Of a stretch of DNA of 64,000 nucleotides, positions 2,996-63,915 are shown one piece after another. The notes beneath the pieces are model-generated. The model was not told where the DNA came from, searched no databases, and worked only from the letters and a program-made list of their open reading frames with translations. The translations under genes were made by a program, and so were the position numbers. This stretch comes from Blastocatellia bacterium (lineage in GTDB: Bacteria > Acidobacteriota > Blastocatellia > UBA7656 > JADIYM01). Position 1 is the first letter of the stretch. Every line of letters begins with the position of its first letter. The DNA is taken from assembly GCA_016705245.1 (NCBI GenBank), contig JADIYM010000025.1:2577-66576 (forward strand). The letters are read 5' to 3'.

Positions 2996-3090
2996 CCGCG
3001 GCTCTGTGACTCTGTGTGCGAAGCTCTTCAGCGTTCTCAAAGAGCTTCGCACACAGCGTCACAGAGCCAGGGAGGCACAGAGTTACGGAC
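2996..3090. repeat. Palindromic repeat family P1 (core GTGTGCGAAGC...GCTTCGCACAC with CACAGAG/CTCTGTG flanks), copy 1. Probable hairpin terminator after the CHAT gene.
   Basis: Inverted repeat ctctgtgtgcgaagctcttcag...agagcttcgcacacag. The same core recurs at about 35.7, 43.9, 45.6, 51.7 and 63.8 kb. Confidence 0.8.
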
Positions 3091-29020: not shown

Positions 29021-31545
29021 ATGTCAGCGGTAACCGCAATTGGATCGATCTCGCAGTGCTTCGCGGCTCGAGTCTCGGAGGGACCGTCGCGGCCAGCCGT
29101 TCGTGCCGGCGACTGCGAATTCTCTTATGCCGATCTGGACGCGCGCTCAAACGGACTCGCGCGCGAGCTTCAGGCGCGGCGCCTGGTCGCTGGTGACCGC
29201 GTCGCCGTGCGCCTGGCACGGACGGACCTGCTCGTTCCGACGATTCTCGGGATATTGAAGGCAGGCTGCGTCTACGTCCCGCTGGACCCCACGTATCCGG
29301 AAGCGCGCACCCGCTCGATACTCGACGACTGCAGCGCTGCGCTCGTGATCTCGGACGATGGAGACGGGCTCGATCCCAACGCGGTTTCGCCGTCGAACGA
29401 GTCGCCGACTGCAATCGTCGAACCGGACGCACTCGCCTGCATCGTGTACACCTCGGGATCGACCGGAACGCCAAAAGGCGTCATGCAGACGCACGCGTAG
29501 CTGGTCGCGTTCGTTCGGAACTGCATCGCGCCCTTCGGCGTCTCGAGCGGCGACAGGCTCTCGATGCTTTACTCATACAGCTTCGCCGCCGCCAACATGG
29601 ACGTCTTCGGTGCGTTGCTCAGCGGCGCAACGGTCTGCTTCTATCCGCTTCGCGAGCGAGGCGTCGCCGGACTCGCCGCGTGGATCGCCGGGGAACGCGT
29701 CTCGATTCTTCATACCATACCGACCGTGTTTCGCCAGCTCATCGCGAGCCTCGAGCAGGGGGATTCACTTGCGACCGTTCGTGCCGTCGATCTCGGTGGC
29801 GAGCCCGTGCTCTCGGTCGACGTCGACCGATTTCGCGAGCATTTTCCGGAAACGGCACTGCTCGTCAACCACTACGCCGCGACCGAACTGAGTGTCATCG
29901 CCCAGATGCCGATTAGCGCCTCGACACACGTCGGACCGGGCGCGGTCCCAGCCGGCTACGCTGCACACGGCGTCGAGATCCGCATCGTCGACGCCGACGG
30001 CGCGGATGTTCCCTCGGGCACGGAAGGCGAGATCGTGGCGCGAAGCGTGCACATGAGCGCGGGGTACTGGAACCAGCCGGAATTGACGGCGCGCAACTTT
30101 GCGACTGACCCGGCGAGCGGCGGACTTCGAATCTACCGAACCGGCGATCTTGGGCGACTGGCGCCCGACGGATGCCTCCAGCATCTGGGCCGCGTGGACG
30201 ATCGCATCAAGATCCGGGGCCAGAGTGTCGAAGTTGCCGAGGTCGAAAACGCGCTCGTCGCCTTCGACGAAATTGCCGAGGCCGTCGTCACGGCGCGTCC
30301 GTCGCCGGCCGGTTCGACGAGGCTTGTCGCCTTCGTGGTCTCGCGCGCCGGGGCATTCCCGACGGCCGAGTCGATCAGGCAACGACTCGCCGTGACACTT
30401 CCCGAATCCATGATCCCGTCGGCGGTTGTCCTGCTCGACCGGCTCCCTTTGACGCCGAGCGGAAAGGTCGACCGCGCCGCCCTCCCCGAGCCTGACCAGG
30501 CGCGCCCCACGCTCGAGGCTGTATTCGTCGAGCCGCGGGATGACCTCGAATCCACGCTCTGTCGCATGTGGGAGGAAATCACGGGAGTGAAGCCCGTCGG
30601 TGTCGACGACGACTTCTTTGCTCTCGGGGGCGACTCGCTAGGCGCGGTCCACCTCTTTGTTCGAATCGAGCGGTTGACAGGGCGACGGCTCCCGCTCTCC
30701 AGCATCATGCGGGCACCGACCGTTGCCAGAATGGCAGAGCTCGTGCGAACGGACGCGGGCTACTCCTCCGCATGGCACCTCGCCACGCTCGGGGCCCGAG
30801 GGACCGAACCGCCGATTTTCTTCGTTCACGGCCTGCGCGGCGGCGTCGTGTTCCTGCGTGGGCTCGTTGAAGCGCTCGGGCCGGACCAGCCGAGTTTTGC
30901 GTTCGAGGCCGACGGCCGATTCGAGGGTCCGCTCGACGCGTCGAGCATCGAAGACCTTGCCGCGGCCTATGTGGACCTGCTGCGCGGCGTTCGTCCGCAA
31001 GGCCCTACCACCTCTGCGGTTATTCGGCCGGCGGCCTCATCGCGTTCGAGATTGCCCGACAGCTCTCCGCCGAAGGCGAGGAGGTCGCGTTTCTCGGACT
31101 CATAGACACCTACGCACCGGTCGCTGGTCGTCGCGTGTCGCCGCTTCAGAAGAAACTGAACCACGCCAGGGTGCTCCGAGCGCTTCCGCGGAGCGAGCGC
31201 GTCGCCTTCGCGCGTCGAACGGCGGACCGCGTCCTTCGCCGTGAGCAGAAGCGTGCGGGAGGCCCCGACGTCGACGGGCCCCTACGTCGCGCACTGCTCG
31301 AGCTGCTCGAGGCGTACGGGCCCGACGGCGGTTATCGCGGACACATCGACCTGTTCCGGCCATCGATTCCATTTCTCGGCGCGCGGATGGACCGTGCGCT
31401 CGGTTGGGACCGGTGCGCGGTCGCAAGCTACACCGTTCACGACGTGCCGGGCGATCATCGAACGGTGTTCGAGGCCGGCAACGCGCAGGCGCTTGCGAAG
31501 TCGATTTCGCGGAAGCTGAATCGGACCGAAGCCGGTGCGGACTAG
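29021..31545 (+). pseudogene. Standalone NRPS-like module (adenylation - PCP - thioesterase), disrupted by an in-frame TAG at 29498 and a frameshift near 31000
   Basis: A-domain cores (YTSGSTGTPKGV; YRTGDLGR; GRVDDRIKIRGQSVE), PCP core (FFALGGDSL) and TE GxSxG (GYSAGG, readable only after a frame change near 31000). The ORFs 29021..29500 and 29564..31105 share one frame and are separated only by a TAG. Confidence 0.7.
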
Positions 31546-36851: not shown

Positions 36852-38143
36852 TTATCGCTCGATCTGGTCGAGCAACGAGCCGGTCTTGCTGTTCGGATTC
36901 CCGGCTTCTTCCTTGCCCGGCCGCGTCACTGGCCGAACATCTGGAGGAGGTCCGGAGCGCATCCCGGGACGCGCTGGCGCCGCCGGTCGAGGCGGCGGAG
37001 TCTGCGGAGGCACCTGCGCTGAAGGATCGCGCAGATCCGACATCGACAGTCTCAGGTTGTGCTTGTTCGTGGCGTATGCGAGGCCGTCCTCGAACGTCAC
37101 GAGGCCTTCGCGGACCATCTTTTCGAGAACCGTGTCGAAGTCCTGCATCCCGTCGATGTCTCCGGCGCGCATCGCCTCGATGAGCGAGCGCTTTTCGGCC
37201 TCGCCCTTCTCGATGTACTCGCGCGTGCGCATCGTCGAGCGCAGGATCTCGACGGCGGGGATGCGGCCCTTGCCGTCGGCCCGCGGCAGAAGCCGCTGCG
37301 ACACGATGTACCGGAAGCTCGTGGACAGTCGTTGGCGGATGCTCTGCTCGTGGGTTTTCGGGAAAATGCCGATGATGCGGTCGACAGTCTTGGCGGCGTC
37401 GGTCGTGTGCAGTGTCGAGAAGACGAGGTGGCCCGTCTCGGCCGCATCGAGGGCAACCTCGACGGTCTCGAGGTCGCGCATCTCGCCCACGAGAATGACC
37501 TTGGGCGCCTGCCGCAGCGCCGGAAGTTGTCCGTATCCGTGTGCAACTCCCGTTGATGAACGGTCGACAGCTTGTGCGGATGCAGGAATTCGATCGGATC
37601 CTCGATCGTGACGATGTGGTATGCGTAGCGCTGGTTGATCTCGTCGACGATCGCAGCAAGCGTCGAAGACTTGCCCGACCCGGTCGGCCCGGTCACGAGC
37701 ACGATGCCGTTCTTCAAGTCGACGACGTCCTTGAGGTGTTCGGGAAGATTGAGGTCGCGGAAGCTCGGCACGCGGTTGGGAATCACTCGCATGACGATCG
37801 CTATCGTGCCGCGCTGCTTGAACACGTTGACGCGAAACCGCGACATGCCGGGCAACGAGTAGCTGACATCCGCCGATCCGGTGCGCTCGAGGCTCTCGGC
37901 CGCGGCTTCGTTGCCTGCAACGAGCACCTTTGCGATGGCAGCGGTGTGTTGCGGAAGCAATCGGTCGAGTCCGGGGAGCGGAATCGGATGCAGCTTCCCG
38001 ATGTGCTCGACCTGCGGCGGTCGCCCCGGCGAGAAGATCAGGTCGCTGACGTTGTCCGCATGCGAGAGCATGGCCTTCAGAATTTCGTGGAAATTCTGGA
38101 CCGTGCCACTTGCCGGGTTACCTGTGGGGGGGTTCTGGGACAT
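36852..38143 (-). CDS. pilT: Type IV pilus retraction ATPase PilT (twitching motility), apparent 1-nt frameshift near 37.5 kb
   Basis: Walker A GPTGSGKSST and the PilT motif GHLVFSTLHT. The N-terminal part is ORF 37097..38143 and the C-terminal part is ORF 36852..37490. They join at HTDTD-SF...ALRQAPKVILVGEMRD if one base is inserted or deleted. Confidence 0.75.
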
Positions 38144-40801: not shown

Positions 40802-41290
40802 CTAATACGGAGTTGCGCGTCGAATGTTGCCGGTGCGCTCGAGGACATTGAACGTTGAGCTGCGTCGGATGCGGCCGTGGAAGATGAAATCGTCGCCGAC
40901 CCGATCACCTGCCTTTTTCCCGCGAATCGCCGCCGTTCCAGTCGGCAATATCTGTGTCAGCTCGACATCCATGAGTACATACAGGTCCGGAACCCTGTCG
41001 TCGTCGCGCGAGCGAGCAATCCGGATTGCAGCCTCTCGCGTAGCGGCCAGCCGATCGCGCGACCGGCGAAAATCCGCAGGCGGCACCTCGCCAACCTCGA
41101 AGAGGTGGGTCAACTCTGCCACTTCGGCATCGAGAAAAGTCATGAACTCGCTCATCTCTGGCCCAAGAGCTTCGCGATCGCTCTCTATCTCCGGCTGTGC
41201 ACGTCGTTGCGCGTCCGTCACGGACACCTGACAAGCCAATGCGAGGCCGAGAATGACGGTTCGGGTGAGCAACTGGCCGGTTCGAGACAT
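40802..41290 (-). CDS. Hypothetical secreted protein
   Basis: Signal peptide (VILGLALACQVSVTDAQ) and 162 aa. It is the last gene before the repeat/iteron region. Confidence 0.45.
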   Translation of the reverse strand: MSRTGQLLTRTVILGLALACQVSVTDAQRRAQPEIESDREALGPEMSEFMTFLDAEVAELTHLFEVGEVPPADFRRSRDRLAATREAAIRIARSRDDDRVPDLYVLMDVELTQILPTGTAAIRGKKAGDRVGDDFIFHGRIRRSSTFNVLERTGNIRRATPY

Positions 41291-41407: not shown

Positions 41408-41730
41408 GAGACCCAGAACCCAGAGCGCAGCGAGGGGCCGACCTCAGCATCGGTAGCCGTTGAAGAGCCGGATGCCGTCAAACCAGACCATCGCCGACCC
41501 AGAACCCAGAGCGCAGCGAGGGGCCGACCTCAGCATCGGTAGCCGTTGAAGAGCCGGATGCCGTCAAACCAGACCATCGCCGACCCAGAACCCAGAGCGC
41601 AGCGAGGGGCCGACCTCAGCATCGGTAGCCGTTGAAGAGCCGGATGCCGTCAAACCAGACCATCGCCGACCCAGAACCCCGAGCGCAGCGAGGGGCCGAC
41701 CCTGGCATCGGTATCAGCCGGAGAACCGGA
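41408..41730. repeat. Tandem direct repeat, 86-bp unit x about 3.7
   Basis: Unit cccagaacccagagcgcagcgaggggccgacctcagcatcggtagccgttgaagagccggatgccgtcaaaccagaccatcgccga, repeated head-to-tail with near-perfect identity. The last copy degenerates. Confidence 0.9.
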
Positions 41731-41835
41731 TCAACTGCCAGGATCTCGTCCAAATGACCCACGGACTCGCCGTGGTATGATGCCGCGGCTTTTGCGGCCC
41801 CTTCCATATCGGATACTGAAATAAGTCGCCCTGGA

Positions 41836-42250
41836 GTATTGGTCTTCGAACTAAGCCGAGGGCACGTCGAATGCTGCCAGTCGCAGTGGATCTATTGGTC
41901 TTTGAGAGAAGCCACTCCCGTCTGCGAAGCTCGTAGATATTGGTCTTCGAGAGAAATCGGGTTTCGGATGGGGCCAATTCATGCCTTTGAACTCGGCAAG
42001 ATACCTATTGGACTTCGAGAGAAGCCTTATAGGGACTCGAGAGAAGTACCTATTGGAACCTGAGAGAAATACTCGCAGATCTCCCAAGGGACCGAGTCAC
42101 GGGTTTGGAGAGAAGAACTATCGGGTTCGTGAAGAGGAATGTATCGGATTCATGAATAAGAGGTATCGGTCACGGAAAGAACGGGAATCGGGTTCTGGAA
42201 GAAACTGAATTGGGTGCCGGGAGAACAGATATCGGTCCCGGAAAGAAATC
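41836..42250. promoter_or_regulatory. Iteron array (about 13 copies, 22-23 bp spacing, consensus TATYGGNYNNSRGAGAA) plus an AT-rich stretch: putative oriV-type replication origin
   Basis: Repeats TATTGGTCTTCGAGAGAA, TATTGGACTTCGAGAGAAG, TATCGGTCACGGAAAGAA and others. Local GC is far below the window average. AT-rich 42255-42330. Immediately upstream of a Rep initiator gene. Confidence 0.7.
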
Positions 42251-42348
42251 GCGTCTCGTAAGTGTATATTGATCAGTAGTTTACGGCCACTGTAACATGA
42301 AGCAAATAACTGCATGTAACATGGAAGGATGACAGCAGTGGTGGTGCT

Positions 42349-43872
42349 GTGATCCCGGCAGAAGGATCAGGAATGACCAAGAAGAGCCGGCCCCAGTCGC
42401 TGGGGACACGGAAACAGCGAGGGCGCAGCGGCAAGGACGAAATGAACCTCGCCGTCTTTCCGATTGCGGCGCTTTCGGTTCGTGTGCCGAAGGACGTCAA
42501 GGCCCTCAAGTTTCAGGACTCGATCCAGGGCGACGGCGGGAAAATCGTCAAGCGAACGTGGACGGTGCAGGGCGGATCGGACTGCGGGTTGCCGACGGCG
42601 GGCGACGAAGACGTCTACGTTGCCCTGATGGAGTTGACCCGAAAGCTCGGATTCTCGGATCGAAAGGTCAACTTCTCGCGCTACGAACTTGCCAAACGAC
42701 TCGGCTGGTCGCCGTGCGGGAAGACCTACAGCCGAATCGAACAGGCGCTGCTCCGGCTCGCGAACGTGAACATCCACGCATCGAACGCCTTCTGGGACAA
42801 CGCGAAGCGCAGCTACGTGACTGTGAGCTTCTCGCTGATCCAGGAGTATCAGCTCTATGACGAAAAGCCTCGAAAAGGCGAAAAGCTCCGTTCTGACCCG
42901 CCGTCGAGCTTTTTCATGTGGACCGAGCGGCTCTTCGAAAGCTTCAAGAGCGGTTACATCAAGTTTCTCGACACGGAGCTGTACTTCAAACTGAACTCGG
43001 CTACGGCTCGGCGTCTCTTCCGGTACCTCGACAAGAAGTTCGGCCGTGACCACCATTTCGCGATCGACGTCTTCAAGCTGGCGCACGAACACCTCGGAAT
43101 CAGCCGGAATTTCAAATACGTCTCCCAGCTCGTTCAGCAGCTCAAGCCGGCGCTCGAGGACCTGAAGGTAAATGGGTACCTGAGGACGTGGGAGGTCCGT
43201 GACCGGGTCATCTCGTTCCAGCGCGTGCCCCACGACGAGTACGAGCAGGAGGTTCTGGAGGAGGCGCTTGACGGCCTGCCTTTTGAAGAGGCCTCCATGA
43301 CGATCGAGGTCGAAGGAGACGACGAAGCGAAGTTAGCCGGCGTCGAAGGAGACGTCCTCGCGGCGCTCCTCGATCGTGGCATCACGAGACGCCGGGCGGC
43401 ATCGATCGTACGGGCGCATTCCCCGAACCGGCTGGGTCAGATCACGGACACGATCTCGTACTTTGACTGGCTGCTCAAACACGGCAAGCGGCGTGTCGAA
43501 AACCCGGCGGGATTTCTCATCTCGCTTATTAGCGACGAGTTGCCGGTCAGTCACGTGGCCCCGCCGCAGGAGGTGGCGACGGCGAACGACGTGACGGACG
43601 AGATCGAGCGGCGAAGCCGTGAGGAGCTCGACTACACGGTCTTCGTCGACACCGAGGTCAATCGCGCAGTGAGCCGGATGGGCGATCTGGCGCTCGAGGC
43701 TCGCATCCAGGAGAAGATGGGGGAGTTCAAGGCCAGCGACAGGGCCGAGGTCTACCATCGTTGGTCCAATGACATGCTGCGCAGTCACGCGGTTCTGTTC
43801 GTGCGGAAGGCCATTGCGGTGGAATTGCAGCTCCCGGAATTCGAGCAGTGGCTCGAACAGCGGCGCAGCTAA
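42349..43872 (+). CDS. repA: Replication initiator protein, RepA (RPA family, PF10134-like)
   Basis: N-terminal block NLAVFPIAALS...GLPTAGDEDVYVALMELTRK...NFSRYELAKRLGWSPCGKTYSRIEQALLRLANVNI matches the conserved layout I recall for alpha-proteobacterial plasmid RepA/RPA proteins. Probable start is the ATG at 42373 (AGGA RBS). GTG at 42349 is the alternative. Confidence 0.7.
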   Translation: MIPAEGSGMTKKSRPQSLGTRKQRGRSGKDEMNLAVFPIAALSVRVPKDVKALKFQDSIQGDGGKIVKRTWTVQGGSDCGLPTAGDEDVYVALMELTRKLGFSDRKVNFSRYELAKRLGWSPCGKTYSRIEQALLRLANVNIHASNAFWDNAKRSYVTVSFSLIQEYQLYDEKPRKGEKLRSDPPSSFFMWTERLFESFKSGYIKFLDTELYFKLNSATARRLFRYLDKKFGRDHHFAIDVFKLAHEHLGISRNFKYVSQLVQQLKPALEDLKVNGYLRTWEVRDRVISFQRVPHDEYEQEVLEEALDGLPFEEASMTIEVEGDDEAKLAGVEGDVLAALLDRGITRRRAASIVRAHSPNRLGQITDTISYFDWLLKHGKRRVENPAGFLISLISDELPVSHVAPPQEVATANDVTDEIERRSREELDYTVFVDTEVNRAVSRMGDLALEARIQEKMGEFKASDRAEVYHRWSNDMLRSHAVLFVRKAIAVELQLPEFEQWLEQRRS

Positions 43873-43874
43873 GC

Positions 43875-43965
43875 CGCTCCGTGACTCTGAGCCTCGGCGT
43901 CTCTGTGTGCGAAGCATCTGAAGCGCTACGCACACAGAGACGCGGAGGCTCAGAGCCACGAAGAA
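43875..43965. repeat. Palindromic repeat family P1, copy 3
   Basis: ctctgtgtgcgaagcatctgaagcgctacgcacacagagacgcggag, between convergent repA (+) and 43991..44410 (-). Confidence 0.75.
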
Positions 43966-43990: not shown

Positions 43991-44410
43991 CTAAGCCTCC
44001 GAATCGGGCTCCGGCGGCGTCACGAGGTCGCGGAGGTCCGAGCGCATCTTCTCGATCTCCACGAGCTTTTCGTCGATCGTCCCGAAGACATCGGACCGCG
44101 CCCGAATGCCCTCATGCAGGAGGTAGGTCGCCGACTCGGCGCGCGTCTTGAAAATGCCGGCATCCACGAGCGTGTCGATCCGTCGCTGGGTGTCGTCGTC
44201 GACGTGGACCGTGATCGAGTTCATCCGGTCCTTGAGATTTTCGAACGCCTTGCCGATCTGATCCGGGATCTTCTGTGCAAAGTCCTTCACCGAGGCCTTG
44301 AATTCCTCGAGCCGGACTCGAGCGTCAGCGCCTGCATCGCGATGGGCCGGATCGCCCTTGTGTTCTACCGTCACGTCGCCAGGGACCAGTGTCTTGTCGG
44401 GATCCGTCAT
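43991..44410 (-). CDS. Hypothetical protein with a C-terminal ribbon-helix-helix (CopG/ParD-like) segment
   Basis: C-terminal RRIDTLVDAGIFKTRAESATYLLHEGI resembles RHH DNA-binding domains. 139 aa, hydrophilic. Confidence 0.45.
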   Translation of the reverse strand: MTDPDKTLVPGDVTVEHKGDPAHRDAGADARVRLEEFKASVKDFAQKIPDQIGKAFENLKDRMNSITVHVDDDTQRRIDTLVDAGIFKTRAESATYLLHEGIRARSDVFGTIDEKLVEIEKMRSDLRDLVTPPEPDSEA

Positions 44411-45403: not shown

Positions 45404-45544
45404 AGTATCGGTCCTCGGAATAAGCGGTCCGACTGGTGTCTCCAAGTCTCATGGGCATGAGACTTAGCGAGCCGGGCACAAATTTCAGCGATGGATTGGC
45501 GTGAGATTCACGCTTCCCTCAGGACCCATGTCGCGTGAGGCGCC

Positions 45545-45648
45545 GCCGCTTGGCTCCGTGTCTCGGTGCCTCTGAGTCTCTGTGTGCGAAGCTCCGCCGC
45601 CGCTTCGCACACAGAGACTCAGAGGCACCGAGACACGGAGGTGCTTCT
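45545..45648. repeat. Palindromic repeat family P1, copy 4 (longest, near-perfect arms of about 45 bp)
   Basis: ctccgtgtctcggtgcctctgagtctctgtgtgcgaagc tccgccgccg cttcgcacacagagactcagaggcaccgagacacggag, between the convergent BON gene (+) and fabG (-). Confidence 0.9.
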
Positions 45649-51689: not shown

Positions 51690-51778
51690 CTCCGCGCCTC
51701 GGTGCCTCCGCGTCTCGGTGTGCGAAGCTCTTCAGACGCTTCGCACACAGAGGCACGGAGGCTCGGAGTCACGGTGTG
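51690..51778. repeat. Palindromic repeat family P1, copy 5
   Basis: tctcggtgtgcgaagctcttcagacgcttcgcacacagaggcacggag, downstream of the dehydrogenase gene. Confidence 0.75.
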
Positions 51779-63795: not shown

Positions 63796-63915
63796 CTCCG
63801 TGTCTCAGTGCCTCCGTGTCTCTGCGTGCGAAGCTCTTCTCATTCACTGAAGAGCTGCGCACACAGAGACACTGAGACACCGAGACGCTGAGGCTCGGAG
63901 GCACAGAGACACCCA
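63796..63915. repeat. Palindromic repeat family P1, copy 6 (long arms)
   Basis: ctccgtgtctcagtgcctccgtgtctctgcgtgcgaagctcttc...gaagagctgcgcacacagagacactgagacaccgagacgctgaggctcggag, immediately after the clpA stop. Confidence 0.85.

Follow-up and report, generated by a model that had tools for sequence, protein, structure and literature searches.

A candidate secondary-chromosome origin of the iteron type, with its own RPA/TrfA-type initiator, in a Blastocatellia bacterium

The stretch of DNA studied here, 64,000 nucleotides of contig JADIYM010000025.1 from a Blastocatellia bacterium (hereafter the window), carries at 41.8-43.9 kb what is very probably a functional iteron replication module, that is, an origin together with its own RPA/TrfA-type initiator, RepA. 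I consider it likely, with a rough probability of 0.65, that a separate secondary chromosome or chromid, equivalent by analogy to chromosome 2 of Chloracidobacterium, starts its replication at this module. An earlier sequence-only reading had already placed an iteron-type origin beside an RPA-family RepA in housekeeping-type DNA, and the protein family, the fold, the repeat statistics and the comparative conservation agree with it. The locus is a solid, unsurprising further example of a known plasmid-type second-chromosome origin; most deserving of further attention are a distal iteron that is conserved and the seemingly class-wide occurrence of this type of origin.

Results

About 1.08 kb of non-coding DNA lie between a minus-strand open reading frame (ORF) of 162 amino acids (aa; 40802-41290) and the plus-strand ORF of 499 aa, repA. 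Relatives were compared over +-10 kb around their repA homologues, and the origin itself was aligned for four lineages, including L017, L018 and L001 (alignment A2). The elements of the module, with scores from a position weight matrix (PWM), are the following.

41806..41958, + strand: outer iterons 1-4, irregularly spaced (30, 56 and 45 bp), PWM scores 24.6-29.7, positions kept in A2 and spacers divergent
42005..42250, + strand: phased block of 11 slots spaced 22-23 bp apart, 10 of them occupied by iterons
42251..42372, + strand: AT-rich spacer, candidate DNA-unwinding region and repA promoter/leader, as judged from composition and conservation
42373..43872, + strand: repA, 499 aa, RPA/TrfA-type replication initiator
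45405..45426, + strand: solitary distal iteron GTATCGGTCCTCGGAATAAGCG in the gap between the BON and SDR genes, 3.03 kb downstream of the repA start

The array consists of 14 iterons of 22 nucleotides (nt) at 41806-42250, all on the + strand and with the core TATYGG-N6-RRARAA. They start at 41806, 41836, 41892, 41937, 42005, 42027, 42050, 42096, 42118, 42141, 42163, 42185, 42207 and 42229, with successive spacings of 30, 56, 45, 68, 22, 23, 46, 22, 23, 22, 22, 22 and 22 bp, the 68 bp being the step from the fourth outer iteron to the phased block. A direct, helically phased array of single orientation thus adjoins the rep gene, with 122 bp from the last iteron to the repA ATG (42373). The sequence-only reading had described about 13 iterons at 22-23 bp; the array is real, but it has 14 units, of which ten keep that pitch while the outer four are irregular. 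The consensus typed at that time, TATYGGNYNNSRGAGAA, is one base too short and finds no match at 0 or 1 mismatch. With the corrected core, ATYGG-N6-RRARAA, there are 8 exact matches and 12 at no more than one mismatch, all on the + strand at 41808-42247, and outside the array both strands of the 64 kb hold only 5 one-mismatch matches, one of which (45407) is the conserved distal iteron. With a PWM derived from them, the 14 units reach 18.5-29.7, a range that is circular, as they are scored by their own matrix; the top unrelated site in the window reaches 14.2, and the maxima of 20 shuffles of 30 kb are 5.8-16.6.

The array is maintained in related lineages, which carry 13-16 iterons, and in the origin alignment the iteron slots are kept and the spacers are divergent. 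The vacant slot of the phased block, at about 42073-42094, holds an intact iteron in L017, L018 and L001, and has therefore decayed in the window lineage. Several iterons of the window score only 18-22, and the copies in L013, a more distant relative, and in Chloracidobacterium are near-identical. In iteron replicons an inverted (half-)iteron at the rep promoter can serve as operator for autorepression. Clear inverted iterons are present in Chloracidobacterium and in L001/L002 and L099, the latter lineages each having one such copy; the inverted match in the window is weak (14 nt, 86% complementary, at 42347-42360), and no reverse-strand PWM match of 14 or more is found in the window.

Mean GC content of the window is about 64% and is uniform outside the origin, falling to 49% in the iteron array and to 43% in the spacer (42251-42345). 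A 60-bp window at 42263 has 35% GC, the third lowest in the 64 kb, and the lowest-GC 400 bp of the whole window (41927-42326, 46.5%) fall where a low-GC island with an AT-rich stretch by the repeats had been noted before. The spacer block at 42291-42323 reads TGTAACATG, ATAACTG, TGTAACATG, and is conserved in all four aligned lineages, as is an AAGGA ribosome-binding site within the spacer. A sigma-70 promoter scan gave no site ahead of repA.

The assignment of RepA to the RPA family, for which a profile search had been suggested as a check, stands: PF10134 (RPA) matches residues 29-266 above its gathering cut-off (E 2e-13, 50.9 bits, cut-off 27). PF07042 (TrfA) matches as well (E 2.9e-7, 30.3 bits, cut-off 22), and homologues of RepA carry precomputed matches to PF01051 (Rep_3). 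No NCBIfam model matches RepA, and a sequence search of the PDB with it gave no real match. All database homologues start at the ATG at 42373, and a version starting at the GTG at 42349 is absent from the records. In the AlphaFold2 model of the protein (pLDDT 73.7), the N-terminal region (about 30-285) mixes alpha helices and beta strands, whereas the C-terminal region (about 317-499) is all-helical. In a Foldseek comparison with the PDB, the best match is to domains 2-3 of Vibrio RctB (E 4.6e-9, probability 1.0, TM 0.52 normalised by the target), and the fourth is 9yzg_C (E 7e-3), an entry whose title does not name the protein and which I take to be a RepE54-DNA co-crystal. What these two structural matches suggest is the core of two winged helices in tandem that iteron initiators have, and the N-terminal part of RepA (about 30-285) is accordingly modelled as a dual winged-helix (WH1-WH2) initiator fold.

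Codon substitutions show strong purifying selection on repA, with dN/dS values of 0.03, 0.04 and 0.14 at a dS of about 1, which is saturated. Its GC content at third codon positions (0.80) lies within the range for the window's other genes (0.73-0.87). The order S41 peptidase - small ORF - gap of 0.7-1.1 kb - RepA - 139-aa ORF - BON - SDR - DUF374 - PruA - ... - ECF sigma - GDH is found again on contigs with RepA identities of 99, 95, 91, 79 and 73%. Because this gene order extends down to 73% RepA identity, repA has low dN/dS values, and iteron slots are conserved between divergent spacers, the module is judged from sequence comparison to be old, vertically inherited and kept by selection. 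Genes for integrases, transposases, relaxases, conjugation or partition (par) were not detected in the 64-kb window, tRNA and Rfam scans of it gave nothing, and no att-like direct repeats flank the module. A recent plasmid integration is rejected on the depth of synteny, the dN/dS values, the ameliorated codon usage and the lack of mobility genes.

The distal iteron scores 23.0 with the PWM, inside the range of the array members. It is found at the matching place (+2965 to +3035) in six of six lineages (L016, L017, L018, L001, L002 and L099), where it is conserved and its flanks are divergent, and it may be a site for control by RepA or for looping. Within +-10 kb of the Chloracidobacterium origin there is no solitary distal iteron.

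The exact 499-aa RepA is recorded on 18 contigs. Two of them belong to Blastocatellia metagenome-assembled genomes (MAGs), JADIZP010000006.1 of GCA_016704725.1 (300,032 bp) and CAWKUU010000013.1 of GCA_963852865.1 (582,935 bp), and several come from wastewater metagenomes, such as those of ERZ272803xx and PRJEB8087. By blastn the window is 98.5% identical to the two MAG contigs, and it therefore comes from the same wastewater species in a different assembly. The longest contig with the exact RepA measures 582,935 bp and is not closed, which puts the replicon that carries the module at 583 kb at least.

Among distant full-length homologues, with 33-36% identity over residues 11-497 or so, is the 'plasmid replication initiator TrfA' of Chloracidobacterium (AEP13818.1 / WP_014101556.1; 34% identity, aligned residues 11-497). 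The replicons encoding these homologues measure 1,051,657 bp in C. thermophilum (CP072633.1), 1,000,103 bp in C. validum (CP072649.1), 1,108,212 bp in C. aggregatum and 994,244 bp in Chloracidobacterium strain D. Chloracidobacterium has two chromosomes of about 2.7 and 1.0 Mb (PMC8245765); as the replicon sizes match that of the smaller one, the homologues sit on chromosome 2. The secondary replicon of C. thermophilum has been described as encoding a plasmid-like Rep (bioRxiv 10.1101/264945). In the literature that I searched there is no description of the iterons of Chloracidobacterium chromosome 2 or of chromids in Blastocatellia.

The Chloracidobacterium repA has a non-coding stretch of about 900 bp ahead of it, in which 13-14 iterons CTATTGACCYTTGACRTAAA, spaced at 21-22 bp in two blocks, are followed by one inverted copy and a strongly AT-rich tract. 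In C. thermophilum the iterons are at about position 1,032,000 of CP072633.1. The two systems are thus alike in host class, in the succession of 0.9 kb of non-coding DNA, direct iterons, AT-rich tract and repA, and in the TATTG...GA..TAA frame shared by their iterons. However, the Chloracidobacterium unit CTATTGACCYTTGACRTAAA differs from sTATYGGnnnnnnGrrAGAA in the window, its copies are near-identical and lie in two blocks with one inverted copy whereas those of the window are degenerate, its AT-rich tract is strong whereas that of the window is modest by comparison, and there is no shared flanking synteny. The Chloracidobacterium replicon is moreover known to be separate, while that of the window would be so by analogy.

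Other members of the family vary the same theme. In L013, whose RepA shows 49% identity, the unit ACTATTGGGGTTGGGGACAAGA is repeated 19 times almost unchanged, and parA-parB lie directly upstream; other loci from Blastocatellia and Acidobacteriota have the iteron TATCGGGTTCTGAGGGGAAGT or a unit of the Chloracidobacterium type; and loci from Bdellovibrionota have TATCG-type repeats spaced 22 bp apart upstream of the RepA homologue. The iteron sequence hence co-varies with RepA across the clade while the 5' TATYG core is kept, as expected for a cognate pair of initiator and site. In the clade of 46-49% RepA identity (L013 7614-9325; L100), a conserved 195-aa ORF comes after repA, together with a cluster resembling type II secretion and type IV pilus genes. 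RepA homologues of 31-45% identity are common on large MAG contigs from Bdellovibrionota/Oligoflexia; large contigs with homologues include L055 (1.87 Mb, Bdellovibrionota), L027 (412 kb) and L095 (336 kb), besides about 50 other loci. Large RepA-driven replicons may be widespread in Bdellovibrionota/Oligoflexia.

Similarity to plasmids is more partial. RPA-family initiators (PF10134) are known from plasmids and megaplasmids of Planctomycetota, Deinococcus, Rubrobacter and Acidobacteria. The best plasmid matches are to 'replication initiator protein A' of the Planctomycetota Singulisphaera, Aquisphaera, Paludisphaera and Isosphaera (31-39% identity, residues 20-390 or so), and weaker ones to Deinococcus and Rubrobacter megaplasmids, including the 412-kb replicon of D. 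radiodurans. These proteins match only about 73-80% of RepA, with identities all below 40%, and their replicons are mostly plasmids and megaplasmids of 25-670 kb. Given this coverage, the C-terminal 110 or so residues are specific to proteins of the Blastocatellia/Bdellovibrionota type.

Two well-studied systems are also instructive. In RK2, an IncP iteron plasmid, oriV contains DnaA boxes and direct repeats that conserve about 17-18 bases and recur every 22-23 bp, and trfA lies away from it. The window module resembles RK2/RP4 in its Pfam TrfA match, in direct repeats with the same pitch by an AT-rich region and in an initiator encoded by the replicon itself. However, repA adjoins the origin in the window, no DnaA box is found there at up to one mismatch, the TrfA similarity is weak (30 bits), and RK2 is a broad-host-range plasmid while the host replicon here measures at least 583 kb. 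RctB of Vibrio cholerae, which acts at ori2, is the plasmid-derived initiator of a domesticated second chromosome, with extra binding sites outside the minimal origin that exert negative control. With it the window shares the best structural match (domains 2-3), an initiator of the iteron type, the concept of a second chromosome and a candidate extra site outside the minimal origin, but the two proteins are not detectably similar in sequence (structurally aligned residues are about 14% identical), and the methylated 11/12-mer iterons, the 39-mers and the timing site crtS have no counterpart in the window module.

Discussion

The sequence-only reading had left the choice between the origin of a chromid and that of an integrated plasmid. 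The former is favoured by the homologous module on Chloracidobacterium chromosome 2 and by the lack of any trace of recent integration, which also makes the latter the less favoured of the two. Chromids, as reportedly defined by Harrison and co-workers in 2010, have plasmid-type replication, nucleotide composition and codon usage like those of the host chromosome and core genes that other taxa have on the chromosome, and are separate from the main chromosome. A replication system of plasmid type is present here, and thyX, pruA, clpA, GDH and an ECF sigma factor gene, all in the window, are candidates for such core genes.

Several observations weigh against this reading. Separateness from a DnaA-replicated main chromosome is argued by analogy with a relative whose RepA is 34% identical and which shares no local synteny. 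Strand compositions do not help either. In a per-gene weighted regression that separated transcription strand from origin side and scanned every candidate switch point, the side coefficient for GC skew at 42 kb came to 0.003+/-0.008 when all sites were counted and to 0.015+/-0.016 (t about 0.9) when third positions were, and t stayed below 2 throughout the 64-kb window. A skew minimum at about 41.8-42.3 kb, to be looked for across the whole replicon, had been proposed as a check; within the 64 kb no switch is seen there, and in the 4-kb flanks of the window lineage (L005, L001, L017 and L018) the skew is slightly opposite in sign. Chloracidobacterium, L013 and most other family members have skew of the expected sign, and over 55 family loci the difference in flank skew, right minus left, is +0.109 (46/55 positive, p = 1.6e-11), a result that is confounded with gene strand, gene orientation being divergent across these loci too. 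Within 64 kb, GC skew is uninformative. Transcription diverging from the origin, as described in the sequence-only reading, holds on the left, where all five genes at 35.8-41.3 kb are on the minus strand, but not on the right of repA, where the strands are mixed and 8 of the 11 genes at 44-54 kb are on the minus strand. At up to one mismatch, the DnaA box TTATCCACA, an E. coli-type consensus, has a single match in the window (60202) and none in the origin; such boxes are common in the origins of iteron replicons, though not universal. Partition genes are likewise lacking within the 64 kb.

Some of these points agree better with a module that lies inside a DnaA-replicated main chromosome. An ancestral chromid or plasmid would have fused with it and kept its ori and repA, which would fire as a second origin or be silent and serve another role. 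Naturally fused single-chromosome Vibrio strains that retain ori2 are a precedent. In favour of such a fusion are the 583-kb contig full of chromosomal-type genes, the lack of a par system within 64 kb, the absence of a local GC-skew switch or clean gene-strand switch in the window lineage, and the occurrence of RepA homologues on very large contigs elsewhere, such as the 1.87-Mb contig from Bdellovibrionota. I nevertheless regard a fusion as rather unlikely: the only relatives with closed genomes keep the module on a separate chromosome of about 1 Mb, integration scars are lacking, and in a silent origin one would not expect 14 iterons in phase, a distal iteron and low repA dN/dS values (0.03-0.14 across lineages with saturated dS) to persist.

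The remaining explanations fit less well. An ancient module among core-like genes (thyX, pruA, clpA) and without DnaA boxes could be the principal origin of a sole or main chromosome, a plasmid-type RepA having replaced DnaA/oriC. This seems barely plausible, as the homologous module of Chloracidobacterium is on the smaller of its two chromosomes (PMC8245765), there is no skew switch, and the window lacks ribosomal, tRNA and rRNA genes as well as the replication-machinery genes that usually cluster by main origins. RepA could alternatively be a transcription factor or idle, with the repeats as a regulatory array or the decaying remains of an integrated plasmid. The iterons of the window are indeed more degenerate than those of its relatives, with one slot decayed and several units at 18-22, as opposed to the near-identical copies of L013 and Chloracidobacterium, and the distal iteron lies in an intergenic region of promoter type. 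However, purifying selection is strong on the whole 499-aa protein, initiator fold included, in six lineages the iterons keep their number, phasing and strand and the AT-rich block beside them is retained, and a bona fide second chromosome has the same architecture, so that a relic is very improbable.

I infer the mode of action of the module by analogy with RK2 TrfA, RepE, Pi and RctB; the binding of RepA to the iterons, the site of unwinding, the control mechanism and a replicon physically separate from a DnaA-driven main chromosome are likewise inferred. RepA monomers would bind the 14 same-strand iterons through their two winged-helix domains, and the 22-23 bp phasing, two helical turns per unit, would set the monomers on one face of the DNA and bend it. 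The bending would melt the adjoining AT-rich spacer, where the host helicase would be loaded. Expression of RepA and the frequency of initiation would probably be kept in check by RepA bound close to the repA promoter and by the pairing ('handcuffing') of RepA molecules on iterons, for which the solitary iteron 3 kb downstream is a candidate partner, looping in cis.

A wider proposal, which is tentative and which I would not expect to hold in full, is that modules of RepA and TATYG iterons could mark an ancient, vertically inherited second chromosome across Blastocatellia, that related modules could drive replicons of hundreds of kb to Mb in Bdellovibrionota and other phyla, and that the distal iteron could exert handcuffing control by looping in cis. 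If so, the distal iteron would be a simple copy-control device specific to chromids, with a logic like that of the RctB regulatory sites of Vibrio.

Much is known of multipartite genomes in Proteobacteria (Vibrio RctB, RepABC, Burkholderia), whereas in Acidobacteria they have scarcely been studied, and to my knowledge Chloracidobacterium is the only acidobacterial two-chromosome case with closed genomes. The present comparison indicates that the type of initiator and iteron origin found on its chromosome 2 is common to distant, uncultured Blastocatellia from wastewater and is stably inherited there. The locus offers defined, testable cis elements, namely the 14 iterons, the AT-rich block and the distal iteron, the last two being conserved. 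It can also serve as a marker when second chromosomes are binned and closed from acidobacterial MAGs, and its roughly 2.1 kb are a candidate minimal replicon for vectors in a phylum without genetic tools.

Neighbouring genes and other features

The neighbours of the module are ordinary cellular genes: MoxR/BatA/DUF58-type genes, PilT, a Ctp protease, ThyX, PruA, GDH, an ECF sigma/anti-sigma pair, spermidine synthase, ClpA and an RND efflux pump. Most of the housekeeping genes named in the sequence-only reading are confirmed. ThyX (TIGR02170, 188.7 bits against a cut-off of 87.9) and PruA (807 bits against 648) pass NCBIfam equivalog/subfamily cut-offs, and ClpA is present; the PilT ORF is present too, though split, while the supposed fabG is an SDR that scores below the NCBIfam cut-offs for FabG equivalogs.

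The pilT-like gene (36852-38143) is broken into two ORFs in the window and has an intact call of 435 aa on sister contigs, and an AMP-binding/PP-binding gene (29021-31105) is likewise broken in two. Compared with L004 and L005, the window shows a difference of about 1.5% and 27-43 gap openings per 21.5 kb. The sequence comparison suggests that both split genes reflect indel errors of a long-read assembly rather than pseudogenes.

Two further elements flank the module.

41410..41713, no strand assigned: 86-bp tandem repeat to the left of the iterons (TRF: period 86, 3.5 copies, 98% matches)
43876..43963, no strand assigned: long palindrome with a perfect stem, directly 3' of the repA stop (RNA fold -67.1 kcal/mol, z = -10.2)

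The core of the 86-bp repeat is present in three copies in the window, L004 and L005, in two copies in L006, L009 and L011, and in one copy in L007, L010 and L012, and it is not found in relatives with 95%, 91% and 79% RepA identity. It is a strain-variable tandem repeat of 1-3 copies that is missing from relatives at 79-95%, and I reject it as an origin component or centromere.

Convergent with repA, on the minus strand at 43991-44410, is a 139-aa ORF that all syntenic relatives have in the same place (138-140 aa); no Pfam family matches it, and in NCBIfam there is only a sub-threshold match to AbmR. The palindrome between the two genes is probably a bidirectional terminator. Its centre belongs to a family of REP-like elements, in which the core TCTCTGTGTGCGAAGC occurs as an inverted pair, with 10 matches (5 pairs) where 0.09 would be expected. 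The five elements, at 3009-3059, 43900-43940, 45577-45617, 51713-51753 and 63819-63869, are probably bidirectional terminators or members of a genome-wide REP family; all five lie outside called ORFs, four of them between genes and one just beyond the last gene of the window.

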